NCBI RefSeq assembly: GCF_000434895.1
Contig: NZ_FR892810.1
Location: forward strand, 1,144-65,143
Direction: 5' to 3'
DNA: 64,000 nucleotides
Source: Phascolarctobacterium succinatutens CAG:287
GTDB taxonomy: Bacteria > Bacillota > Negativicutes > Acidaminococcales > Acidaminococcaceae
Position numbers and translations under genes: made by a program. Below are positions 5,557-21,937 of the stretch, in pieces. The notes under the pieces are model-generated. The model worked only from the letters and a program-made list of their open reading frames with translations, was not told where the DNA came from and ran no database searches. Position 1 is the first letter of the stretch, and each line of letters opens with the position of its first letter.

Positions 5557-5740
5557 ATATATTCATCCTCTCATGTGCATAAAACATCTGCCAAATATAG
5601 ATTTATAGCACTTTTAAGGATGGTTGTCAATAGGGTTTTAATATGAGAAGTGCCGCAGAAATAATAAAAACATATCTATTAATGCTTTTATTATAAAAAG
5701 CATTAACGATTCGTTCTTTTGTGCTTAATATATTTCAATG

Positions 5741-6694
5741 CTACACTATATCTCTAAAATATTGGATTGTTTTTTCCAATCCTACTTCCAAATCAACTTT
5801 TGGTTTCCATTTTAAAACATTCATAGCTAAAGAAATATCTGGACAACGTCTTTTAGGATCATCTTTTGGCAAAGCCTTATAAGAAAAATCAGAACTATTT
5901 TCACAATACAATCTGATTAAACTAGCAACATCAAAAATTGTTCTTTCATCAGGATTCCCTAAATTAACAGGTCCTTGAAATGAATCTTCCGTTGACATCA
6001 TTTTTAATAAACCATCCACCAAGTCATCAATATAGCAAAAACTTCTAGTTTGTTCTCCTCTTCCATATATAGTTAAGTTCTCTCCCCTTAACGCCTGAAC
6101 TATAAAATTAGAAATAACTCTACCATCATCAGCAGACATAAATGGGCCATACGTATTAAATATTCTTACAACCTTTACCAAAGAACCATATTTCCTCGCA
6201 TAATCAAAAATCAAGGACTCAGCACATCTTTTCCCTTCATCGTAACATGATCTGATACCTGTACAATTAACGTTTCCCAAGTAATTCTCTTTTTGTGGAA
6301 AAATTAACGGATCTCCGTAAACTTCGCTTGTACTAGCCTGTAAAAACTTTGCATGATTTTTTCGTGCCAAATTCAATAAATTCAATACACATATCGTGTT
6401 TACTTTAGTAGTATATATTGGATCTTCTTGATATTTCAATGGAGCTGCTGGACACGCAAGGTTATAAATCTCATCGATTTTATATGAAGAATCCAAAACA
6501 TCTAATATATCCAATATATCTCCATTTACTATATTAAATCTCTCAGTTTCTAACAATACTCTTACATTATTTATATTTCCAGTCGTAAGATTATCAAAAC
6601 ATATTACGTGGTTCTGTAAATTATCTAGCAGTCGACGGCATAAATTGGAACCAATAAATCCAGCTCCTCCCGTAACCAAAATAGTACTCATCAT
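5741..6694 (-). CDS. NAD-dependent epimerase/dehydratase, UDP-glucuronate decarboxylase (UXS)-like
   Basis: N-terminal GGAGFIGSNL Rossmann motif, catalytic YxxxK-like region (YDEGKR), and UXS-like blocks RIFNTYGP and LTIYGRGEQTRSFCYIDDLV. AT-rich gene. Confidence 0.8.
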   Translation of the reverse strand: MMSTILVTGGAGFIGSNLCRRLLDNLQNHVICFDNLTTGNINNVRVLLETERFNIVNGDILDILDVLDSSYKIDEIYNLACPAAPLKYQEDPIYTTKVNTICVLNLLNLARKNHAKFLQASTSEVYGDPLIFPQKENYLGNVNCTGIRSCYDEGKRCAESLIFDYARKYGSLVKVVRIFNTYGPFMSADDGRVISNFIVQALRGENLTIYGRGEQTRSFCYIDDLVDGLLKMMSTEDSFQGPVNLGNPDERTIFDVASLIRLYCENSSDFSYKALPKDDPKRRCPDISLAMNVLKWKPKVDLEVGLEKTIQYFRDIV

Positions 6695-6746
6695 TTCCTC
6701 CTAAAAACCAAACGCAGCAAATCGTCGTTGATAGTAATCATAAAAA

Positions 6747-7946
6747 TCAAAGCACTATACGATTAAAACGAGCTTCATTCGAAAGGCTAGTACGTAAAGC
6801 TTTACTACAATAAAACGGATCCAGGTTATATTCTTTCAAAATTTTATCTAATGAATAAAAATAATTAATAACAGTTTCAAATGACGGGACATCACAATCC
6901 AAACGATTTCCTTTATCAAGGTGTAACACATTTGCACTAGAAACAATACCTTGAGAAGCAAGGTATTGATTAAATTTAAGCAAATTTCCAATAGGTTCTA
7001 AACCTAAAACAAAATTAGTCCAAGAATTACCATAGCCAAATACATCAACACCTTTTTTTAAAGCATCTAAGATATGATTAAATCCGATGTTCTTTTTTCC
7101 TGGACAATATTTTGCAAAATCATCTTCATTCCCAAGCTCAAAATTAAATACTATTTTTTCAATTCCGGCTTCCTTAAAGTCTTCTAGTATGTCTAAATCA
7201 TTGGGCGGCATACAAACTGCTATAATACCTTCAGTAGACTTTTTCTCTACTAATGGCTTTATTGCCCTAACAATATCACAATAAATGTGAGCTTGCATAT
7301 CTAACACTTGATCAGATAAGTCTCCAGAAATCAGAATCACATGCATATGTTCATCATAACATTTTGACTTAATAGCCGCTTTGACTGATTTCGTGAGATA
7401 ATTTAGATATGTATCCTTATTTTCATTCCAAAAATCGGGAGAAGAAACCTGATATGCCGTAAAAATACTTGCTTTGTTTTCACCAGCAACAGTGTTTGCA
7501 CCACAGAAAAGACAACCTGCAGAAATATTGCATCCTTTCCAAGGAATTATGTTCAATTCATCCAAACCACAAGCAGATACAAAATCCTTTGCAACTAAAT
7601 CTTCTTCTAATTTATAAGAATAGTAGTCAGGTTCTTCAATAAAAGAGATTGAAATATCTTCAACTTTTCTATTATCAACAGTCGCAAATAATTCCCCATT
7701 TTTGCAATCAACCACTACTGGTTTTAACTTTCCAGGAGCCACACAAGAAGATACTGTTTCAAATCCATCCGAATGACGTATCAATAATTCTTGAGGACGG
7801 AAGTTATCTGCTCCTACCGGAGCATTGTATACCAAATTCTGAATCTTGGCATTTGTCTTACGTGCATATAAAAGAGCTTCATCAGTAAATTGTACCCCAT
7901 GCGTTAATATCATAGCTTTTAAAAAAGTTTCAGGCATTATCATCAT
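6747..7946 (-). CDS. hypothetical protein, possible radical-SAM-like enzyme with noncanonical CX5CX2C motif
   Basis: The only Cys triad is CNISAGCLFCGAN. Downstream segments (HVILISGD, NFVLGLEP) sit where the GGE-like and GxIxGxxE-like radical SAM TIM-barrel motifs would be. No canonical CX3CX2C. Confidence 0.35.
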   Translation of the reverse strand: MMIMPETFLKAMILTHGVQFTDEALLYARKTNAKIQNLVYNAPVGADNFRPQELLIRHSDGFETVSSCVAPGKLKPVVVDCKNGELFATVDNRKVEDISISFIEEPDYYSYKLEEDLVAKDFVSACGLDELNIIPWKGCNISAGCLFCGANTVAGENKASIFTAYQVSSPDFWNENKDTYLNYLTKSVKAAIKSKCYDEHMHVILISGDLSDQVLDMQAHIYCDIVRAIKPLVEKKSTEGIIAVCMPPNDLDILEDFKEAGIEKIVFNFELGNEDDFAKYCPGKKNIGFNHILDALKKGVDVFGYGNSWTNFVLGLEPIGNLLKFNQYLASQGIVSSANVLHLDKGNRLDCDVPSFETVINYFYSLDKILKEYNLDPFYCSKALRTSLSNEARFNRIVL

Positions 7947-8874
7947 TCTTATCTCCTCTTAGTATATTAAAAATCCAAACGATATGAAATATTGGAAAAA
8001 ACAACTGATAAATTACACCATAAAATAGTAGTTTATAATCTTTTCTAGTCATAAGTAAAGCGATTGCTAAAATATAAATCATTCCAGCGTACAAATTACA
8101 ATAACTAATGTATCCAATCATAAGCCAATTGACTATCCAACTAAAATGGTAAAATGCTGCATGCAATAATAATTTGCTTTGATATTCTTTTCGTTTCGGA
8201 TATGAGAATATTTGATAGAAACCTTTCGCCCAACGCTTACGTTGTCTACATAATCCCCCAAAATTTGTATTAGGTTTTTCGTAACCAAGAAGAAAAGACG
8301 ATCGTAATATACTATAGTCTTTCCTATTATTACTTATATAAGCGCCAATAGCAAGATCATCTAAAAAAGTATCAATTTGATATAATTTATCTTGAAAAGC
8401 TTTTGGTCTAATAAAAAAGCATTGTCCTGGTATACTAATTCCCATATTTAATTTCCACGATAAAGGTCTTATCAAATCATGAGATAAGTGTTTATCCGTC
8501 GCCACTAGATTTGATATAAAGCCAGACTGTGATTGGGCATAAATTCGTCCCCATCCAATATCATATTTCCCTGATAATCCTTTTTCTAAAAACTTGAGTA
8601 TTGTCTCGTCATTTACATTTATATCGTTATCAATACTCAAATATAAACAATCCTCTTGTTCTCTTTCAAATAAATACAGTAGCCTAATATACTTTGTTCC
8701 CGGAAAATTTATACTATCGATTTTTATGCCATCAAATTCAAATTTTCTATCATTATCAGTAAATATGATACAAGAGATTTTTGTATTAAGCTTTAACGAA
8801 AGCGTAAGTATCTTTTTTATATTATCATTAAAAGCCTCATTGCTTCGCATATATGTTATAATTTTCAAGTTCAT
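7930..8874 (-). CDS. membrane glycosyltransferase family 2
   Basis: DXD-like motifs (SIDNDINVND), Q-R-K-R-W motif (CRQRKRWAKG) typical of processive/inverting GT2 enzymes, and C-terminal transmembrane helices. 4-nt-scale overlaps with both neighbours. Confidence 0.7.
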   Translation of the reverse strand: MNLKIITYMRSNEAFNDNIKKILTLSLKLNTKISCIIFTDNDRKFEFDGIKIDSINFPGTKYIRLLYLFEREQEDCLYLSIDNDINVNDETILKFLEKGLSGKYDIGWGRIYAQSQSGFISNLVATDKHLSHDLIRPLSWKLNMGISIPGQCFFIRPKAFQDKLYQIDTFLDDLAIGAYISNNRKDYSILRSSFLLGYEKPNTNFGGLCRQRKRWAKGFYQIFSYPKRKEYQSKLLLHAAFYHFSWIVNWLMIGYISYCNLYAGMIYILAIALLMTRKDYKLLFYGVIYQLFFPIFHIVWIFNILRGDKNDDNA

Positions 8875-10484
8875 ATTATATCTACCTTTTCTCCATTCAT
8901 ATAAACATATTCAAGCTTCATTCTTTTGGCAGAAAGCAAAGCGTCTGATTGACTTTCTACAATAGGTTCTCCTTTGCCATTAAAAGAAGTGTTAATCAAT
9001 ACTAATTCCCCATATTTTTTCTCAAGATAATCTAAAATTTTCCAAATCAGCTTTTTATTTTGATTCTCGTATATAACTTGAATTCTAACAGTATTATCTT
9101 TATGAACCAAAGCTGGCATATAATCTATCATTTCAGGTTTAATATTTATTGCCGATAGCATAAGCGGACTAGCTATTCTATCATCAGTAATCTTTTTCAG
9201 ATTACGCTCTAATATTACACCTCCAAAAGGTCTAAAGTTTTCCCGATGCTTTATCTGTAAATTGAGCCGATCCTTCATGTTCTTACTTTTTGCAGAAGCA
9301 ATAATGCTTCGATTGCAAAGAGCTCGCGGACCATATTCCGAGCCACCTTCAAATAGTCCTATAATCTTATCATCATGTATATCTTTTATTACCTGAAATA
9401 ATACAGATTCATCATAACATATTTCACCATAACTTTTTCCTAATGCATAGTCCCACTCAATTTTACTCTTATCTTTAAATATTTTTCTAATTGCCCAAAG
9501 TCCTGCTCCTATAGAAATTCCGTCATCTCCACTTGCTGGAAAAAGACCCAATGAATTAATCAATCCACTATTTATTAATTTTCCATTGTTAAGGCAATTT
9601 AATGCAACCCCACCAGAAAAACAAAAATCTAGGACATTATATTTTTCAGAAAAATATTTAATACGGGTTTGAATGTAGCTTTCTAATTCGAATTGAAGAG
9701 CACATGCAATATTTTTTGCTGTTTGCAACTCATATGATAGTGGATAATCTTGTGAATTTAAATAATCTAACCATTCTTTACGAACATGTAATTTTTTATC
9801 AAAATACAGACATTCTGGTACATCAGCATTCCCCACACCATATGCTGCCAATGCCATAACTTTGCCAGCTGCATTATAATCCTTAAAAATCAGTCGGCTA
9901 ACATCGGCATAGGCATATCCTATGGAGTCCATATGTGATCCCCATTTGTATTTATGCTTAGATGCACTTTCATGAACAGCATATTTCTTTTCAGCTTGTA
10001 ATTCAGTTATTTCGCCATTATCCAGTAGATATAGAGATTCTGCTTCAAATAAATCTTCTTCTGATAAGCTCGAACATCCATTATCAACTGGTCTGCACCC
10101 ACGCCCATCCATTATATAAATTAATGTCTTGTCAAATTTAGCTGCTAAAGATGCTGCATATGCATGAAATAAATGATGCTCATATCTCACAATTACTTTT
10201 GAAAACTTCTTATAATAATCATCATTAATTTCAGTTGAATCATACCAATTTACACGAACAACTAACGAAATTTGATTATACGTAATACCAGCAGCTTTAA
10301 GTAAATATTCTATGCATTCAATAGGTTCTCCAGAATCATGTTTTTTTCTAGTTAATCGCTCTCTGGCAATTGCATAGAGTAATTGATTATTTTTATATAA
10401 ACATGCTGAAGAATCATGTCCACTATGAACGCCAAGTATATAACGATCCACTTGATTCCCCCCTTTACAAACGTGCTTTTTCAA
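8871..10484 (-). CDS. carbamoyltransferase (NodU/CmcH/TobZ family)
   Basis: N-terminal ASKHA/Kae1-like block ILGVHSGHDSSACLYKNNQLLYAIARERLTRKKHD and C-terminal YrdC-like carbamoyltransferase region. About 537 aa, the typical length. Confidence 0.8.
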   Translation of the reverse strand: MKKHVCKGGNQVDRYILGVHSGHDSSACLYKNNQLLYAIARERLTRKKHDSGEPIECIEYLLKAAGITYNQISLVVRVNWYDSTEINDDYYKKFSKVIVRYEHHLFHAYAASLAAKFDKTLIYIMDGRGCRPVDNGCSSLSEEDLFEAESLYLLDNGEITELQAEKKYAVHESASKHKYKWGSHMDSIGYAYADVSRLIFKDYNAAGKVMALAAYGVGNADVPECLYFDKKLHVRKEWLDYLNSQDYPLSYELQTAKNIACALQFELESYIQTRIKYFSEKYNVLDFCFSGGVALNCLNNGKLINSGLINSLGLFPASGDDGISIGAGLWAIRKIFKDKSKIEWDYALGKSYGEICYDESVLFQVIKDIHDDKIIGLFEGGSEYGPRALCNRSIIASAKSKNMKDRLNLQIKHRENFRPFGGVILERNLKKITDDRIASPLMLSAINIKPEMIDYMPALVHKDNTVRIQVIYENQNKKLIWKILDYLEKKYGELVLINTSFNGKGEPIVESQSDALLSAKRMKLEYVYMNGEKVDII

Positions 10485-11127
10485 TTGCCATACTATGTCT
10501 ACGTTTTTCTATGCAATTCGGACAATGGAAAGAATGAATTATCCCATTATACCCACAGCCTTTTTCTTCGCTAAGATTTATTTCTTTAGTTTTTTCCGGA
10601 TGCTTATCTCTGTATCTATTTTTTATTTCAACACTACATTTTATACAAGGAACATCATTTTTTTCTTTTACATATACTGCAATTCCTGTTTTATCCCATA
10701 TATTGAGTTCATCACAAGTACTACAATACGCTAAAAACCAAGGAAATCCCCCATATAAATGTGATATTAATTTTTTTGAAAAAACATACTGAAATTCTTG
10801 TATTTCAAAATCACCTTTTTCTTGAAGAGCTTCATATACCTCATTATCAAATGATTCGCCTGGCCGAAATAAAAGATAGGTATCAGATTCATCGATGTTC
10901 AAATCGCAGCTTTTATATTCATTATACCCCAAAATATCATATACTAATGCCGGAACCCATGGATATAAAATATGAGTATTATCTCTATCAATTGCTTTTA
11001 GGTCCTCATAAGTTTTAATCTTTGAAGTACACTTAATCAATTCATCTTTATCAATTTCTATTCCCTGCATTTTCATAGCTAATTTAAATGATTTTATGCA
11101 AACACTATCCATCTCAAACCTCATCAT
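10465..11127 (-). CDS. hypothetical protein with C-terminal zinc-ribbon-like Cys pairs
   Basis: CxxC...CxxC...HCPNC arrangement in the last 70 residues. No recognisable catalytic motif. Translationally coupled to neighbours by overlaps. Confidence 0.5.
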   Translation of the reverse strand: MMRFEMDSVCIKSFKLAMKMQGIEIDKDELIKCTSKIKTYEDLKAIDRDNTHILYPWVPALVYDILGYNEYKSCDLNIDESDTYLLFRPGESFDNEVYEALQEKGDFEIQEFQYVFSKKLISHLYGGFPWFLAYCSTCDELNIWDKTGIAVYVKEKNDVPCIKCSVEIKNRYRDKHPEKTKEINLSEEKGCGYNGIIHSFHCPNCIEKRRHSMAIEKARL

Positions 11128-12283
11128 GCTTAATATATTGGCTACCGATTAGTAGTCTATCTTTTATTTTCTTATAATACGCTTCTGAGAAATTATCTCC
11201 TAAACATATAGCTAATCGATTATTGGCACTAGGATCTAATCTATCAATTCTATCTCCTAATTTTTTTAATTTTATAGCCTGTAAATCGTTAATAAGAAAA
11301 TTATCATTTATTAGCGTTCCCATAGTATTAGGGATAAAATTCAACTGAAAAACATTTTGGAAATTTCCTTTATTAGCTATGCATTTTTCTCCAAACAACA
11401 CTTCTAAGGAATCCCTATATAAATTACCACCATGGTATCTCAGTAATTCTGAAATTCCTCCACCCACTCGGCATGAGAAATCAATCGGAACTAGCACATT
11501 GCTGACACTAGTAGGTGAAATAAAATCGAATTGTCCGAATGAAATATTATCATAATCAAACAACGCATTGCACCATAATTCTAAATATCTTCTTATAAGC
11601 TCTGTTGGTTCTTCTAATACATATGCTAATACACACGGAGCATTATCAATAATTGTTCTGTATTTTTTGCATACCCTAACAACAGAAATTTTACCCTGAA
11701 AGAAAAAAACATCCGCACTATATTCTACGCCATCAATAAATTCAAAACATATTGATGGTGAAGCTGTAATATCTAATACTTTTTTTACCTTTTCGTCGAC
11801 AATAGACGCATCAATTAAATACTTATCTATATTGTGATAATTTAACGCAGAAATAATTTTGACGCCGTGTCCTGAATATTGATTATCTGGTTTTATAATA
11901 TATACTTTTTGTTTATCTGACACTATTTTTTTTACATTGCTCGTTATTTCATATCTATTCGATGGCAATCCGTGTTGCATCATGCAATCCGCTAAATATT
12001 TTTTAGACCGACTAGCCTTAAATGCTTTAGTAGAAATTCTACACCTTTTTACATTCTTTTTACACCATGTTACCCAATATTCATTTAATGGCACTACTAT
12101 TGAATCTTCATCTTTAATATCATTTTTAACACTTACTTCTTTCAAATCATCTGAACTAATATATTTTGCCATTTCAGGTGTTTCAACAAATTGCAATGCG
12201 AAATCCGAATTTTTAGAAGCAGCTTTTATATCTGCCAATCCATATATGCTTGCAGCACCTGCAAATATTATTATTGTTTTCAT
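11114..12283 (-). CDS. ATP-grasp domain protein (putative ligase)
   Basis: Central block KQKVYIIKPDNQYSGHGVKII typical of the ATP-grasp fold (D-Ala-D-Ala ligase/RimK/graspetide-ligase families), about 390 aa. First gene after a 540-bp gap containing a terminator. Confidence 0.55.
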   Translation of the reverse strand: MKTIIIFAGAASIYGLADIKAASKNSDFALQFVETPEMAKYISSDDLKEVSVKNDIKDEDSIVVPLNEYWVTWCKKNVKRCRISTKAFKASRSKKYLADCMMQHGLPSNRYEITSNVKKIVSDKQKVYIIKPDNQYSGHGVKIISALNYHNIDKYLIDASIVDEKVKKVLDITASPSICFEFIDGVEYSADVFFFQGKISVVRVCKKYRTIIDNAPCVLAYVLEEPTELIRRYLELWCNALFDYDNISFGQFDFISPTSVSNVLVPIDFSCRVGGGISELLRYHGGNLYRDSLEVLFGEKCIANKGNFQNVFQLNFIPNTMGTLINDNFLINDLQAIKLKKLGDRIDRLDPSANNRLAICLGDNFSEAYYKKIKDRLLIGSQYIKHDEV

Positions 12284-12611
12284 CTCAATTTCTCCTAGAT
12301 TAACTCTAAACCCAATTATATGAAAGCTTGTGCCGTTAACAAAAAGAATATCAATAGTGATTTTTGCGTCAAACCTATTGTTCCGAAAAGTAGCGGGTAC
12401 TACATATCAATCTTATTTTAGCGCAATCGAAGCTATTAGTAAATCCTGCTACAAATTTTTTAAAGACATGATATACTTCGCGCATTCTTAAAGTTCTTAC
12501 GAATAAATATAATAAAAACGAGAAATGCCACAAAAATTACATAAGCGTCTAATAAAGTCTCCACTTACAAAGCATACAAATTAATATTACATATCTAAGC
12601 AAAAAACAAAA

Positions 12612-12662
12612 CCTCCTATTCCAGAATGTTAATATACCGAAATATACATTCTAAAAAGGAGG
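12612..12662 (-). terminator. Rho-independent terminator/attenuator downstream of small peptide gene 1
   Basis: Inverted repeat cctcctattccagaatgt...acattctaaaaaggagg, which on the minus strand is followed by a T-run (ttttgtttttt). Lies between the peptide gene and the ATP-grasp gene. Confidence 0.45.
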
Positions 12663-12821
12663 CTGAGACAGTATATCTTCCGAAAATTATATCACTAAAT
12701 TACTCAACATTAAACCATCTGAGGTGTTATCTTTAACTGGAAGCTCAAAAAAAGGTACTATTATTCTTAAGATTCACCTGAAAGTTAACGATTAGATCCA
12801 CTCAATTCCAATAACAATAAA

Positions 12822-13019
12822 TTATTGATTGAATCTTATTGAATTATTGTTTACAGACAGTAAAGCTTTACTGTGAATATCTCTAAGCATTAAACCAGAA
12901 GCAGTGCCCACAGAAAATGCTGATGCTGCACTAAGTCCGGCAACAGCGCCTACGACAGCGGGAATAGCACCCTCACTAGGATATAAATTATTAATTAATG
13001 GTTTACTATATTTTTTCAT
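12822..13019 (-). CDS. small Gly/Ala-rich peptide (candidate RiPP/bacteriocin precursor 1)
   Basis: 65 aa: MKKYSKPLINNLYPSEGAIPAVVGAVAGLSAASAFSVGTASGLMLRDIHSKALLSVNNNSIRFNQ. Its ATG overlaps the PqqD-like stop (ATGA). Paralogous to the peptide at 13310..13474, with a shared MKK[YS][SY]xKP N-terminus and an A[IF]P..VGAxxAG core. Confidence 0.5.
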   Translation of the reverse strand: MKKYSKPLINNLYPSEGAIPAVVGAVAGLSAASAFSVGTASGLMLRDIHSKALLSVNNNSIRFNQ

Positions 13020-13306
13020 TTTTTATCCTCCAATCTGATAATATTTTTCCATTGTAAATCCCTAATCAGATTTACTATGTCTTGTTCTAAACTATTTTCG
13101 TCAATTACGTAATCCTTAAGAAACATTTCTTTTATTTCTTCGATTTTTCTTTTTCCATCGCATAATTCCAGAAAATTTTTAGCCGTTTCATTTAAATAAA
13201 AAATATCTAAACCGTCTGATTCTGCTATTAAAAAATCTTCATTTTCCCTAGTCTTTAAGGCTATAACTCTAGGAATCTTATCTTTAAAAAAATCGTACAC
13301 CACCAC
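13016..13306 (-). CDS. PqqD-family protein (RiPP recognition element, peptide chaperone)
   Basis: LNETAKNFLELCDGKRKIEEIKEMFLKDY matches the PqqD/RRE signature (LNxTaxxIWeLcDGkrTveEI). About 95 aa. Probable GTG start, 3 nt after the peptide-2 stop. Confidence 0.7.
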   Translation of the reverse strand: MVVYDFFKDKIPRVIALKTRENEDFLIAESDGLDIFYLNETAKNFLELCDGKRKIEEIKEMFLKDYVIDENSLEQDIVNLIRDLQWKNIIRLEDKK

Positions 13307-13309
13307 AAT

Positions 13310-13474
13310 TCACCTACCTAAATTTTTCAGTTTTATTACAGGGCTCGCTTTCATAGCATGAGCTACTGCTCTTCCAATTACGTAACCACCAGCTAAAGCT
13401 GCACCTACCATCGGAAACGCACTTTTCCCCATATCAAAGCACATAGCCACTGGTTTTATATAACTTTTCTTCAT
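13310..13474 (-). CDS. small Gly/Ala-rich peptide (candidate precursor 2), absent from the ORF track
   Basis: Manual translation from the ATG at 13474 (RBS TAAGGAG 6 nt upstream) gives 54 aa: MKKSYIKPVAMCFDMGKSAFPMVGAALAGGYVIGRAVAHAMKASPVIKLKNLGR, stop at 13310-13312. Paralogous to peptide 1. Confidence 0.5.
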   Translation of the reverse strand: MKKSYIKPVAMCFDMGKSAFPMVGAALAGGYVIGRAVAHAMKASPVIKLKNLGR

Positions 13475-13560
13475 AGCAAACAACTCCTTATAATATCTTT
13501 TATTTTTACCGATTTTCTCGGTCTTTTGTAGTTTTTTATATTTTAAGTCAGCTTTTTGTT

Positions 13561-14601
13561 TTAGACTAAAATATCTTTATCAACATGATTTTGAATATTG
13601 CCCTTTTGAGTCTCCTCGTTTATTGAGGCAATAAATTTTTGAACTCTTTCACTCTTCCATGCATTAATTCCGTGCTTCATCCATAACTCTTTTAGTGAAG
13701 TATTTAACACATTGCCAATAATGAACGGAGCCATGCAATCTAATCGGAATTCCCCATTAGGTCTAATGATACCGCCAGCATTATTCTCTAAGCTATACCT
13801 TTTCATTTGATGCCCCAAATCAGCACTTCTTCTAATTTCTATTTTCTCGTTATACTTATTTTGAAGCTTACTAATAACTTCATACAAGCAATTTTTTTGT
13901 TCTTTCGTTAAAATAATATCTTCATTAGTAATAGCTCTTCCACTAGGCAAAACCTCACCTAAAATAATTCTGCTTGCCCCCATGCTATAAGCTAAATCTA
14001 CCATATCCTCAACTTTTCCTAGATTTTTAGGAGTTACCGTATGAGCAATTACAAGAGGTATACCAGCTTGAGAAATTTCCAAAGCACCATTTACCGCTCG
14101 TTCAAAGCTGCCTCTCACCCCCCTGAACTCGTCATGAATTTCTGCTGTTGAACCGTCAATAGATACTTGAAACCAATAATATCTATACTTACTAAAGCGT
14201 TTTACTTTTTCTTTAGTCAGCAGGTAACCGTTTGTAATAACTACAAAAGAAGTCCCATCATCATGCAAAATATCCATTATGTCAAATAGGCGATCACCTA
14301 ATAATAATGGCTCTCCGCCAGAAAGAATACATTGAAAAATACCGCCATCTTTAACTATCTCTTTAGCCAAACTGCACCATTTATCTGGTGTCATTAACGT
14401 CTCCCTATCAGCATCACCAGATCTATTATAACAATGCTTGCACGCAAGATTGCATCGTCCTGTTAATTCAAATTGTAACGTAATCGGATATGTAAATTTT
14501 TCAGGATATAAGCCTTGTTTTCTTAAATTAGTAATATTTTCTTCAATAGCCTTTAGATATTGATTATCTAACGCTCTGTTTATTTTTATATAATCTTTCA
14601 T
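13561..14601 (-). CDS. radical SAM enzyme (peptide-maturase-like, PqqE/anSME-type N-terminal domain; incomplete SPASM cysteine set)
   Basis: Canonical CNLACKHCY (CX3CX2C) at residues about 50-58, SAM-binding ILSGGEPLL, and the glycine-rich barrel motifs. The C-terminal region has only two Cys (RLDCMAPF), so no full SPASM. Start overlaps the upstream gene (ATGA). Confidence 0.85.
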   Translation of the reverse strand: MKDYIKINRALDNQYLKAIEENITNLRKQGLYPEKFTYPITLQFELTGRCNLACKHCYNRSGDADRETLMTPDKWCSLAKEIVKDGGIFQCILSGGEPLLLGDRLFDIMDILHDDGTSFVVITNGYLLTKEKVKRFSKYRYYWFQVSIDGSTAEIHDEFRGVRGSFERAVNGALEISQAGIPLVIAHTVTPKNLGKVEDMVDLAYSMGASRIILGEVLPSGRAITNEDIILTKEQKNCLYEVISKLQNKYNEKIEIRRSADLGHQMKRYSLENNAGGIIRPNGEFRLDCMAPFIIGNVLNTSLKELWMKHGINAWKSERVQKFIASINEETQKGNIQNHVDKDILV

Positions 14602-14870
14602 TCTTTTTCTCCTTTTATTATTTTACAAAAAAAGTAAATAATACGATGAAATTCACGAACACTCATATACGGAAAATACTTTTCGTAAACATACTTACCA
14701 TTGCAAGCATTCGGCCGGATAGAATAAATTGAACATCTGTTATCCACATTCAAGAATTTGCAAATACCATCGCCTCTATCAAATCCTAATAATTGCAGTA
14801 TTCTATTCACATGTTTACAACATTCCCCACAGCAATCGCATGGAAACGGATAATACTTTTGCACAATCAT
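14598..14870 (-). CDS. YkgJ-family cysteine-cluster protein (putative Zn/Fe-chelating domain, PF03692-like)
   Basis: FPCDCCGECC = CxCCxxCC motif, plus further Cys (C..C, CNGK), characteristic of the YkgJ / flagellin N-methylase-like cysteine cluster. 90 aa. Confidence 0.55.
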   Translation of the reverse strand: MIVQKYYPFPCDCCGECCKHVNRILQLLGFDRGDGICKFLNVDNRCSIYSIRPNACNGKYVYEKYFPYMSVREFHRIIYFFCKIIKGEKE

Positions 14871-14954
14871 TTCCCCTTAATAACATTGACATAAATTTGA
14901 CCTTTTTGTTTTAAGAACGTTTTATATTTAGTTTATTAATGAGAGTTTTTGATT

Positions 14955-15185
14955 TTATCCATTCTCCACCCCATCCATCAGCTCGCTCATCGTAATACCT
15001 AGTTTCTCGGCAATCTTCATTAAGGTTGAAAGTGATACGCTTTTTGTATAACCGCCATTTTCAATACGCGATAAATATTGCGGCGTAATGCCAACTTCTT
15101 CTGCAAGCTTCTCTTGTGTCATGCTCTTCAATTTTCTATAAAAAACTATCTTGGCACCTATTTTCTTATATCGCGACGCAAACAT
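14955..15185 (-). CDS. XRE-family helix-turn-helix transcriptional regulator (type a)
   Basis: LKSMTQEKLAEEVGITPQYLSRIENGGYTKSVSLSTLMKIAEKLGITMSEL is a classic Cro/C1-type HTH. Sits immediately upstream of, and co-directional with, the YkgJ/rSAM/peptide operon. Confidence 0.8.
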   Translation of the reverse strand: MFASRYKKIGAKIVFYRKLKSMTQEKLAEEVGITPQYLSRIENGGYTKSVSLSTLMKIAEKLGITMSELMDGVENG

Positions 15186-15342
15186 TTAGCTCTCACTCCT
15201 CTTACCACTATATTATCGCACATTCTCAATTTCTTATCTTTGCACAATTGTTTCATAACTTTACATATAGTTTAATTTTTTTTGCGCCTTGCTTTTTGGA
15301 GCTCGCCAATGTACTTACATCATTATTTATTTCTGCTGCTTC

Positions 15343-15585
15343 TTACTTTCTCTCCTGCATAAGCCGCACCGGGTCAACCCCCAAAGCCTGCGCCAGCAAA
15401 AATATAGACTCCATATTAAAGGGTCCCTTGCCGCATTCGATGTCTGAAACGCGCGCTCTTGACATTTTGGCCTTCTCCGCCAGCTCGCTCTGCGTCAGGC
15501 TCAATGCCCTACGATAATACATTATATTCAAGCCAATAGTTTTATATTTTTCTTCAAACAAAAAGTACCACTCCTTATCTCTCAC
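15343..15585 (-). CDS. XRE-family helix-turn-helix transcriptional regulator (type b, copy 1)
   Basis: LSLTQSELAEKAKMSRARVSDIECGKGPFNMESIFLLAQALGVDP. About 96% identical to the protein at 21719..21937. Confidence 0.8.
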   Translation of the reverse strand: MRDKEWYFLFEEKYKTIGLNIMYYRRALSLTQSELAEKAKMSRARVSDIECGKGPFNMESIFLLAQALGVDPVRLMQERK

Positions 15586-15758
15586 CTTATATTATGCACT
15601 AAAAAGGTAGCTCGTGCGGTGCTTTAAATTTTATATATGTGGAATATATTTGACATGAATGCTGTAAACTTCCTTACTTACCGCCTGCTTTTAGTATAAA
15701 TTGAAATGAGAAACAATAATACCACTATAAAATTTCTTCTTTGTGATATTTGAATAAG

Positions 15759-15811
15759 AAAAAAGCTCCCGGATTTCTCCGAGAGCCGATTGCCATAGTT
15801 GGCGGAGTGGG
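15759..15811. repeat. direct repeat: copy of the tRNA-Ser(GCU) 3' end plus terminator hairpin (att-like, distal copy)
   Basis: aaaaaagctcccggatttctccgagagccgattgccatagttggcggagtggg matches 26704..26756 at 49 of 53 positions. All four mismatches fall in the hairpin arms as two compensatory pairs, preserving the stem. Confidence 0.7.
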
Positions 15812-15864
15812 TTAAGGTCTTCTAACCCAACAACAAAGTAATGCTTACTTAATCCTATCAATTT

Positions 15865-16926
15865 TTATTTCAGCAGTGCTACTTTGGAATCTCCAACGCC
15901 GCTATTCAGCTGTGCTGTTTTTGAATTTGCAACGGCCTTACTCAGCAGGGCAACCTTTTTATCTATTTCCTTTTGGACACGCTCTTTGTAATCCTTTAAG
16001 GCCGCATCAATGGTATCGATAACCTGGGAATCGTAATCCACATAATTAATGGCGTCCTTCAAATCTCCTATATATTCTTCGCAAGCCTTATTTACATCTT
16101 TATAGCAATATTTCTCTTCATATTTATCATTACCGAAGAAGCTAGTGCCTGCATATACTTCTGTATCATCTGTATCCATATAATCCCTATAATCACTACG
16201 GGAAGTATAATTGCAGCCATTAAACTCTCTCATTACATCACTGCAGCCGCGCTCTTCAAACTCTTTAAGCCTTACATTGAGCATATACACAAGCACAGAA
16301 TCCTTCTCATTAGCACTGCCGCCCGGGAAAACCGCAAATTCTTTAAAGTCTGCCGGCAGCTTAATTCCGCCTGCAGCTGCCGCTCCGGCAAATTCCTGCA
16401 GCACATCTGCATACTGCTTGTTAATCTGCCCCCAGAAGCCGCTTTCATCAAAAGTATAAAATCTTCTCAGCTTGTCTTCCTTATATTGCACAAAAACCTC
16501 AAGAATGAATTTCTTATACTGCGAATAGCAGATACGATCAAATTCACTTTCCGCAGCACTCATAGCTCTGCTTTCGCTGGAATAATCATAACGATATTCT
16601 CCCTGCGGATAGGAGCAGGTCATACGGTAATCCTGTGCGTGCATCTCAACATCTTTTCGGGTAACATTCGGAACGGTAATCTTTGCTAAAGCGTTTTGCA
16701 GTTTTTCCGGCAGCTTGCTTAAGTCTGCGCCTTCGCCTTCCGCTATGCTTAAAGCTTGTACAGGGCAACCGGCAACAATTTCTTCAGCCTTGGCTAAAAA
16801 ATCATCACTAAAATAGCCACCATTTACAGGAACAGCCTTGCCTTCAGCATCTTCCTGCAAAAGTTTTGTTTCTAATAAGCAGTTGCCACAAGCAATGCAT
16901 TTTTCACTAACTACAAATTTTTTCAT
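15865..16926 (-). CDS. hypothetical protein with N-terminal single-cluster 4Fe-4S ferredoxin-like domain
   Basis: N-terminus CIACGNCLLET...AGCPVQAL resembles single [4Fe-4S] ferredoxin domains. The remaining roughly 290 aa have no recognisable motif. First gene downstream in a three-gene operon. Confidence 0.5.
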   Translation of the reverse strand: MKKFVVSEKCIACGNCLLETKLLQEDAEGKAVPVNGGYFSDDFLAKAEEIVAGCPVQALSIAEGEGADLSKLPEKLQNALAKITVPNVTRKDVEMHAQDYRMTCSYPQGEYRYDYSSESRAMSAAESEFDRICYSQYKKFILEVFVQYKEDKLRRFYTFDESGFWGQINKQYADVLQEFAGAAAAGGIKLPADFKEFAVFPGGSANEKDSVLVYMLNVRLKEFEERGCSDVMREFNGCNYTSRSDYRDYMDTDDTEVYAGTSFFGNDKYEEKYCYKDVNKACEEYIGDLKDAINYVDYDSQVIDTIDAALKDYKERVQKEIDKKVALLSKAVANSKTAQLNSGVGDSKVALLK

Positions 16927-21718: not shown

Positions 21719-21937
21719 TTACTTTCTCTCCTGCAGAAGCCGCACCGGGTCAACCCCCAGGGCCTGCGCCAGCAAAAATATAGACTCCATATTAAACGGT
21801 CCCTTACCGCATTCTATATCCGAGACGCGCGCCCTTGACATTTGGGCTTTCTCCGCCAGCTCGCTCTGCGTCAGACTCAATGACCTGCGATAATACATAA
21901 TATTTAAGCCAATAGTTTTATATTTTTCTTCAAACAA
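21719..21937 (-). CDS. XRE-family helix-turn-helix transcriptional regulator (type b, copy 2)
   Basis: 72 aa, about 96% identical to 15343..15585. The roughly 190 bp on its high-coordinate side are also conserved with 15586-15758. Confidence 0.8.
   Translation of the reverse strand: MFEEKYKTIGLNIMYYRRSLSLTQSELAEKAQMSRARVSDIECGKGPFNMESIFLLAQALGVDPVRLLQERK

Follow-up and report, generated by a model that had tools for sequence, protein, structure and literature searches.

Several described pathways set a small precursor gene beside genes for a stand-alone PqqD protein and a radical S-adenosylmethionine (SAM) enzyme of the SPASM/twitch class, as in PqqA/PqqD/PqqE, MftA/MftB/MftC and WgkA/WgkC/WgkB. 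In lasso peptides and the linear polyphosphorylated peptide (LPP) family, discrete PqqD-like recognition elements (RREs) for peptides that are ribosomally synthesized and then post-translationally modified (RiPPs) bind a leader motif of the form [Y/W]xxPx[L/V/I/F/A], and mutation of its Tyr or Pro weakens leader-RRE binding (PMC13381572). Here we describe a cassette that resembles these systems in a 64,000-nt stretch of Phascolarctobacterium succinatutens CAG:287 (contig NZ_FR892810.1, positions 1,144 to 65,143), hereafter the window, whose numbering is used throughout. Our subject is peptide 2, a 54-codon open reading frame (ORF) between the radical SAM and PqqD-family genes of this cassette, which an initial annotation of the window had proposed as a gene. 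Sequence comparison indicates that peptide 2 is a real, conserved gene under purifying selection and is invariably syntenic. We place at roughly 70% the probability that it is translated and is the type A member of a homologous peptide pair that would serve as RiPP-type precursors for the radical SAM enzyme of the cassette.

Coding evidence for the peptide 2 gene

Peptide 2 and the features that adjoin it are as follows.

13310 to 13474, minus strand: peptide 2, a 54-aa type A precursor-like peptide, MKKSYIKPVAMCFDMGKSAFPMVGAALAGGYVIGRAVAHAMKASPVIKLKNLGR, from the ORF and comparison with homologues
13484 to 13490, minus strand: TAAGGAG, the Shine-Dalgarno (SD) sequence of peptide 2, read directly
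13492 to 13560, minus strand: 69-nt AT-rich insertion between the radical SAM stop and the SD of peptide 2, from allele alignment
13016 to 13306, minus strand: discrete PqqD-family protein, 96 aa, presumed RRE (Pfam PqqD, 39.9 bits)
12822 to 13019, minus strand: peptide 1, a 65-aa type B precursor-like peptide whose ATG overlaps the PqqD stop (ATGA)

The initial annotation described a clean ATG with a TAAGGAG ribosome-binding site, giving no strand, and a stop 3 nt ahead of the GTG of a PqqD-like gene. A direct reading of the minus strand agrees on both points. The ATG occupies 13474-13472 and the SD 13490-13484, with a gap of 9 nt; the TGA stop occupies 13312-13310 and is followed by a 3-nt spacer (13309-13307) and then by the GTG at 13306, and the downstream gene scores well above the Pfam PqqD cut-off of 23.4 bits. 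The mechanical ORF list opens the frame at a TTG at 13483, which gives 57 aa. We take the ATG as the true start because the TTG abuts the SD and because every homologue starts with MK.

The frame is short, and when the 254-nt stretch that separates the radical SAM gene from PqqD is shuffled, approximately 1% of the shuffled sequences hold an ATG ORF of at least 54 aa, as would be needed for peptide 2 to be a chance open frame in that spacer. The probability of an open 54-codon frame at the local composition (approximately 31% G+C) is 0.007. The evidence from other genomes bears directly on this possibility. Gene finders have called the exact 54-aa product in many human-gut metagenome assemblies (440 blocks in the index), and eight such loci were read (L001-L008); the description of the ORF as unannotated thus holds for the ORF track on which the initial annotation relied and fails for the public assemblies. 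The closest named genome is an uncultured Phascolarctobacterium metagenome-assembled genome, in which the radical SAM enzyme is 95% identical. Diverged orthologues of peptide 2 at 96, 89 and 78% protein identity have exactly 54 codons each. Against the three diverged cassettes, 10-13% of the bases of the gene differ (87-90% DNA identity) with zero indels. Frameshifts and stops in orthologous loci, which the initial annotation had named as evidence against a gene, were looked for and none was found.

The substitution pattern points the same way. Peptide 2 carries 8-10 synonymous and 7-13 non-synonymous changes relative to the three cassettes, so that synonymous changes are over-represented, with ratios of non-synonymous to synonymous rates (dN/dS) of 0.41, 0.16 and 0.35 (Fisher p of 0.058, 0.0005 and 0.032, respectively). 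In the diverged cassettes dN/dS is approximately 0.1 for the neighboring enzymes and 0.4-0.65 for peptide 1. Therefore, both peptides evolve faster than the enzymes, yet under constraint. RiPP precursors usually evolve faster than their enzymes.

The SD and ATG of peptide 2 are conserved although the spacer upstream of them carries the 69-nt indel. The window allele shares the insertion with L004, L006, L007 and L008; L001-L003, L005 and L009-L012 lack it and have a 17-nt spacer. It holds a short hairpin (GACCGAGAAAATCGGT); its predicted RNA fold is unremarkable (z of -1.76) and there are zero promoter matches inside it. Most distinct homologues (22 of 25) have an SD-like motif upstream. Two other ORFs, of 34 and 52 aa, in the spacer at 12284-12821 served as a negative control for peptide 2: we rejected them as non-coding because indels in other alleles break their frames (25 nt deleted in L002, 1 nt in L001/L012).

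With the radical SAM protein as query, genome and metagenome collections yielded approximately 40 further loci from human gut, goat and rumen, Selenomonadaceae and Megasphaera among them, with divergent enzymes 62-77% identical. In all 41 loci that had enough flanking sequence to score, the interval from the radical SAM gene to PqqD holds at least one type A gene, and the far side of PqqD at least one type B gene, a class-by-position result that is partly circular because both profiles were built from peptides already sorted by position. Some loci hold two or three copies of each type. Profile E-values for the family reach 1e-21 across 1.8 billion proteins. A chance frame would have had to stay intact at 13% DNA divergence, with a synonymous bias, a conserved SD and a homologue in the same slot at 41 of 41 loci, while the 12284-12821 ORFs were broken; we give it next to no probability. 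The proposal that peptide 2 is a real gene is thus well supported by the conserved frame, the synonymous bias, the conserved SD and ATG, and the same-slot homologues.

Two peptide classes with a common N-terminal motif

The initial annotation also rested its case on paralogy between peptide 2 and the 65-aa peptide downstream. Pairwise, the resemblance is weak (BLASTP E of 0.005, 10/27 identities, at the N-terminus only). However, the type A and type B profiles are homologous (hhalign probability 97.8%, E of 8e-13, 63 columns). The paralogy therefore stands at the level of profiles, between two distinct subfamilies with fixed positions, and is weak between the two peptides themselves.

A profile search of a 5.8-billion-protein collection returned 72 clusters, all of 54-76 aa, without a Pfam domain and named only 'hypothetical protein'. 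A full HMMER pass over 1.84 billion representatives gave 155 clusters (50% identity) at E up to 0.001, and the 150 that were listed are all 44-102 aa long and unnamed. The NCBI homologues of peptide 2 are likewise labelled 'hypothetical protein'. Neither peptide matched anything meaningful in Pfam, NCBIfam or PADLOC; matches to nqrD and HblD at E of approximately 0.1 were read as noise. Literature searches on radical SAM enzymes and RiPPs in Phascolarctobacterium, Negativicutes, Megasphaera or Selenomonas, and on YkgJ with RiPPs, turned up no account of the cassette. By these searches the peptide family is uncharacterized, with neither a Pfam or NCBIfam model nor a name.

Both types start with [M-K-x-x]-Y-x-x-P-x-[I/V/L/A]. 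The N-terminus of peptide 2, M-K-K-S-Y5-I-K-P8-V-A10, fits YxxPx[L/V/I/F/A], and the corresponding residues of peptide 1 are Y4, P7 and I9. The motif [YW]xxPx[LVIFA] occurs near the N-terminus in 67 of the 72 members from the profile search, and [YWF]xxP does so in all 145 further representatives. Approximately 13 residues past the motif, both types have a conserved G-x-[I/V/F]-P, after which their Ala/Gly-rich hydrophobic cores diverge. The type A alignment has M1, K2, Y5, P8 and P21 invariant and G30, G34 and L52 nearly so, and its core is strongly conserved (..L-A-G-Y-A-x-G-R-A-V-x-x-A-x-K-A-x-P-x-x-K-L-x-x-L). In peptide 2 the N-terminus is hydrophilic and basic, neither a signal nor an anchor sequence, and residues 22-54 include five basic and zero acidic residues and a small-xxx-small ladder of A26, G30, G34 and A38.

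The sole Cys of peptide 2, C12, and the presence of SkfB-, AlbA- and StsB-type maturases among the matches of the radical SAM enzyme would suit a precursor of the sactipeptide or ranthipeptide type, in which the enzyme would form a Cys-to-carbon thioether. However, Ser takes the place of C12 in L016, a cassette that is 96% identical, most homologues lack C12, peptide 1 is without Cys, and the enzyme does not have the auxiliary-cluster Cys on which such maturases rely. Since the peptides have no conserved Cys, thioether chemistry is excluded for them, and we regard a thioether precursor as very improbable.

The radical SAM cassette, its proposed function and its surroundings

The remaining features of the cassette are these.

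14955 to 15185, minus strand: XRE-family helix-turn-helix (HTH) regulator, 76 aa, directly upstream of the cassette (Pfam HTH_3, E of 1.6e-17)
14598 to 14870, minus strand: YkgJ-type CxxCxxCC protein, 90 aa (Pfam PF03692, E of 3.9e-4, just below the cut-off)
13561 to 14601, minus strand: radical SAM enzyme, 346 aa (Pfam Radical_SAM, E of 9e-26)
12599 to 12664, minus strand: long hairpin followed by UUUUGUUUUUU, probable intrinsic terminator of the cassette, from folding

The order is XRE regulator, YkgJ-like protein, radical SAM enzyme, peptide 2, PqqD, peptide 1 and terminator, all on the minus strand and tightly packed; the YkgJ-like stop overlaps the radical SAM start by 4 nt. An HTH gene occupies the matching position in L009, L010, L014, L052 and L053. 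The terminator hairpin lies approximately 160 nt past peptide 1, has a folding energy of -24.8 kcal/mol (z of -3.9, with 0 of 200 shuffles as stable) and is conserved in 8 alleles; a consensus terminator scan missed it because its stem is long and imperfect. A promoter scan found promoter-like sites no more numerous than in shuffled sequence.

The presumed RRE matches the NCBIfam models for PqqD, GeoRSP-PqqD, WgkC and lasso-PqqD, all below their cut-offs, and its sequence matches to PqqD and TbiB1 in the PDB are weak. For the radical SAM enzyme, the best NCBIfam matches (AhbD, NirJ2, GeoRSP, MftC, PqqE and SkfB) all fall well short of their cut-offs; PqqE and MftC, for example, score 105-107 bits where 265-381 would be required. 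Its sequence matches include SkfB (E of 1e-21), PqqE (1e-11) and YydG (1e-5, core only). The AlphaFold2 model (pLDDT of 85) has SkfB, SuiB, PqqE, anSME and EpeE/YydG as its closest folds by Foldseek, so the enzyme as modelled is of the peptide-maturase, SPASM/twitch-like fold. The CxxxCxxC triad (C50/C54/C57), C91 and C289 are the only invariant Cys residues in an alignment of 26 sequences, with C76 present in at least 90%; C76 and C91 belong to the core of the enzyme and C289 to its C-terminal hairpin. Neither a match to Pfam SPASM nor the seven-Cys SPASM motif was found in the enzyme. We made no defence assignment from matches to viperin (PADLOC pVip), since they cover the generic core only and the corresponding NCBIfam match reaches 65 bits where the cut-off is 180.

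The YkgJ-like protein has eight Cys that are invariant in 7 homologues. Its gene precedes that of the radical SAM enzyme in most loci whose sequence extends far enough, namely in Phascolarctobacterium (L009, L010), in Selenomonadaceae (L014, L052), in Megasphaera micronuciformis (L050) and in two unassigned loci (L040, L054); it was not called in Megasphaera stantonii L056. Since the radical SAM enzyme has no auxiliary-cluster Cys of its own, this translationally coupled 8-Cys protein may supply auxiliary Fe-S chemistry in trans.

Our proposal for how the cassette would work runs as follows. The YkgJ-like, radical SAM, peptide A, PqqD and peptide B genes would be transcribed as a single unit, with tight translational coupling through the 4-nt overlaps and the 3-nt spacer. 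The N-terminal residues of each peptide, approximately 20 in number, would form a leader whose YxxPx[L/V/I/F/A] docks on the discrete PqqD protein, as in lasso peptides and LPP. PqqD would then present the peptide to the radical SAM enzyme, which would abstract a hydrogen atom and modify one or more residues of the core. The core would begin at Pro21 and include the A26-G30-G34-A38 ladder, G-Y-x-x-G-R and K-A-x-P-x-x-K-L. Candidate modifications are an epimerization with C289 as the hydrogen donor and a crosslink in which the conserved Tyr/Phe and Arg/Lys of G-Y-x-x-G-R take part. As an alternative to help in trans from the YkgJ-like protein, the reaction may need no auxiliary cluster, and epimerization is one candidate for such a reaction. 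The two cationic, hydrophobic, small-xxx-small products would probably act jointly in the membrane, like a two-peptide bacteriocin. Binding to PqqD, the modification itself, the part played by the YkgJ-like protein and any function in membranes or as antimicrobials are what we infer from sequence.

Several observations weigh against a precursor role. Past residue 91, only C289 is conserved and every other SPASM/twitch Cys is missing; because the auxiliary-cluster Cys are missing, the radical SAM enzyme is not a standard member of the maturase families that it resembles. Conservation of the peptide core, with its motifs G-Y-x-x-G-R and K-A-x-P-x-x-K-L, exceeds that of many RiPP families and could instead indicate a structural peptide that is not modified. 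In M. micronuciformis (L050/L051, 6944-7984), the radical SAM gene was called as pieces of 205/224 aa and 129 aa, and the type A, PqqD and type B genes are intact; the split could reflect decay of the enzyme gene, a frameshift or a sequencing artefact. In the Phascolarctobacterium, Selenomonadaceae and Megasphaera loci, genes for a leader peptidase, an exporter or immunity are not conserved next to the cassette, a negative that covers the neighbors of the cassette, as such genes may sit elsewhere in the genome. The neighbors themselves vary by lineage, being a set of ATP-grasp, carbamoyltransferase and family 2 glycosyltransferase (GT2) genes in the window and transposases on either side in M. 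stantonii. The circularity in the assignment of classes by position belongs with these points.

Some of the same observations would be explained if peptide 2 were a real but unmodified small membrane protein, whether an accessory, an immunity or scaffold subunit, or the partner of a true substrate in peptide 1, its N-terminus then serving some other end. The highly conserved core with a ladder typical of helix packing in membranes, the lack of a protease or exporter in the cassette, and the intact peptide genes beside a split enzyme gene would all suit such a protein. Nevertheless, both peptide types share YxxPx[LVIA] and a Pro approximately 13 residues on, which suggests that the same recognition protein serves both, and the copy number of the two types varies together while the rest of the cassette is unchanged. 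The hydrophilic, basic N-terminus also fits poorly with a simple membrane protein, and overall we think this explanation unlikely.

The peptides could also be precursors of a cofactor or small molecule, processed inside the cell like PqqA or MftA. The pairing of a discrete PqqD with a radical SAM enzyme is that of the pyrroloquinoline quinone (PQQ) and mycofactocin pathways, the best NCBIfam and PDB matches of the enzyme include MftC and PqqE, and an exporter is absent from the cassette. However, no peptidase, oxidase, PqqB/C or MftD/E/F is conserved nearby, the matches to PQQ and mycofactocin models fall far short of their cut-offs, and the peptides match no NCBIfam or Pfam model. Moreover, the peptides are long (54-100 aa), hydrophobic and conserved throughout, and lack a short reactive C-terminal motif. 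Because the further pathway enzymes are missing, a precursor of this kind seems distinctly improbable.

A precursor role for both peptides therefore remains the reading that we prefer. A more specific version of it is tentative, with the odds against it as it stands: that the cassette represents a new RiPP class confined to the Negativicutes (diderm Firmicutes), in which a cluster-less radical SAM enzyme of SPASM fold, a coupled 8-Cys YkgJ subunit and PqqD would place an undescribed modification on two precursor classes. With no protease or export genes dedicated to them, the products would form a membrane-active pair or a component of the cell's own membrane. In the Selenomonadaceae-type loci viewed for downstream genes (L013, L014, L031, L034, L052 and L053), the downstream flanks carry varying combinations of TerB-like (L013, L014), DUF1232 (L014, L034, L052, L053) and DUF4230 (L052, L053) genes, which may have roles in immunity or membrane stress that are connected with the peptides.

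Past the terminator, the window holds an ATP-grasp gene (11114-12283), an unknown 220-aa protein, a carbamoyltransferase, a GT2 glycosyltransferase, an unknown 399-aa protein and a UXS-like epimerase, which is followed by a TonB-dependent receptor gene. We weighed tailoring of the peptides as a role for the ATP-grasp, carbamoyltransferase, GT2 and UXS-like genes and did not adopt it, although some link may exist: they lie beyond the terminator and after promoter-like matches, are absent from the cassettes of other genera and differ in recombination history. The ATP-grasp gene of L009 matches that of the window at 100% identity and the L009 cassette (12822-14870) at approximately 94%, and in L001 the pattern is reversed. 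From these alignments the region appears to be of mosaic ancestry, with recombination breakpoints near the 12284-12821 spacer. The segment from approximately 5.7 to 15 kb, which holds both the cassette and the downstream gene set, has 30-34% G+C against 40-50% in its flanks; this composition suggests that a low-G+C island (approximately 5700-15000) was acquired horizontally.

The 399-aa protein (6747-7946, minus strand) has no Pfam match and carries the motif CNISAGCLFC (C-x5-C-x2-C); this motif could mark a Fe-S or radical SAM-like enzyme of non-canonical type in a glycan-type gene set. Upstream of the cassette, two near-identical small XRE-type HTH genes (15343-15585 and 21719-21937, minus strand, 80 and 72 aa) share ...EEKYKTIGLNIMYYRR.LSLTQSELAEKA.MSRARVSDIECGKGPFNMESIFLLAQALGVDPVRL.QERK, and the block between them differs in gene content among metagenome loci (L001, L006 and L008 for comparison); it may be a variable cargo region. 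A search of 11500-16000 with Rfam gave only a sub-threshold match to the small RNA Bacilli-1 (28.1 bits against 55.6) at 12218-12266 on the minus strand, at the 5' coding end of the ATP-grasp gene, and this match is probably due to chance.

Significance and comparison with described systems

The cassette is not a new kind of biology, since the logic of a precursor, a PqqD-type recognition protein and a radical SAM enzyme is familiar. What is undescribed, in the curated libraries and literature that we searched, is the putative precursor families, the cluster-less maturase-like enzyme with a Cys-rich partner, and the fixed A-PqqD-B order. Three traits are unusual: two putative precursor classes in a fixed order around the chaperone gene, a maturase-like enzyme without auxiliary Cys, and a small Cys-cluster partner. 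The family is common in abundant Negativicutes of the human gut, mouth and rumen (Phascolarctobacterium, Megasphaera and Selenomonadaceae). If the peptides are modified, the cassette would be a compact set of five genes in which to look for new radical SAM peptide chemistry and would allow a test of whether an auxiliary cluster can be provided in trans; antimicrobial products, if that is what they are, would be relevant to competition within the gut microbiota. For annotation, the lesson is that ORFs of sub-threshold length should be retained when they lie beside PqqD and radical SAM genes.

Among the closest known systems are the Pqq, Mft and Wgk pathways introduced above. MftC, PqqE and WgkB are among the best models for the enzyme, and WgkC and PqqD are the best for the chaperone, all far below family cut-offs. 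Unlike those systems, the cassette has an enzyme without auxiliary-cluster Cys, adds an 8-Cys YkgJ-like neighbor in most loci, and has two homologous classes of precursor-like peptide that flank PqqD in a fixed order, while neither a peptidase nor further tailoring enzymes are conserved with it. With the lasso and LPP leaders, peptide 2, peptide 1 and their family have [Y/W]xxPx[L/V/I/F/A] in common. However, the cassette has no lasso cyclase, B2 protease, kinase or SpI-like peptidase, its presumed modifying enzyme is a radical SAM protein, and the motif of its peptides stands at the extreme N-terminus (residue 4-5).

The epipeptide system YydF/YydG (EpeX/EpeE) and the proteusin epimerases act on short substrates rich in Val, Ile and Ala, as peptide 2 is. 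The fold of the radical SAM enzyme resembles that of EpeE, with low sequence similarity (the YydG match given above, over the core only). EpeE differs in having an auxiliary cluster (PDB titles refer to '[4Fe-4S] clusters'), and the epipeptide system differs in its YydH protease and YydIJ transporter, homologues of which are absent from the cassette. What an epimerase requires is a Cys that donates hydrogen, not a redox auxiliary cluster, and the single invariant C-terminal Cys289 would fit this requirement.

Finally, two-component bacteriocins, whether modified by radical SAM enzymes (thuricin CD) or unmodified (class IIb, such as lactococcin G), differ from the cassette in several respects. 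The cassette lacks thioether Cys, has one radical SAM enzyme rather than two, and has neither a double-glycine leader, nor a C39-peptidase ABC transporter, nor a recognizable immunity gene, and its hosts are diderm Negativicutes. What it has in common with both is a pair of different small, cationic, hydrophobic peptides encoded side by side. GxxxG and small-xxx-small motifs mediate helix pairing in class IIb bacteriocins, and each of the cassette peptides carries motifs of this type.

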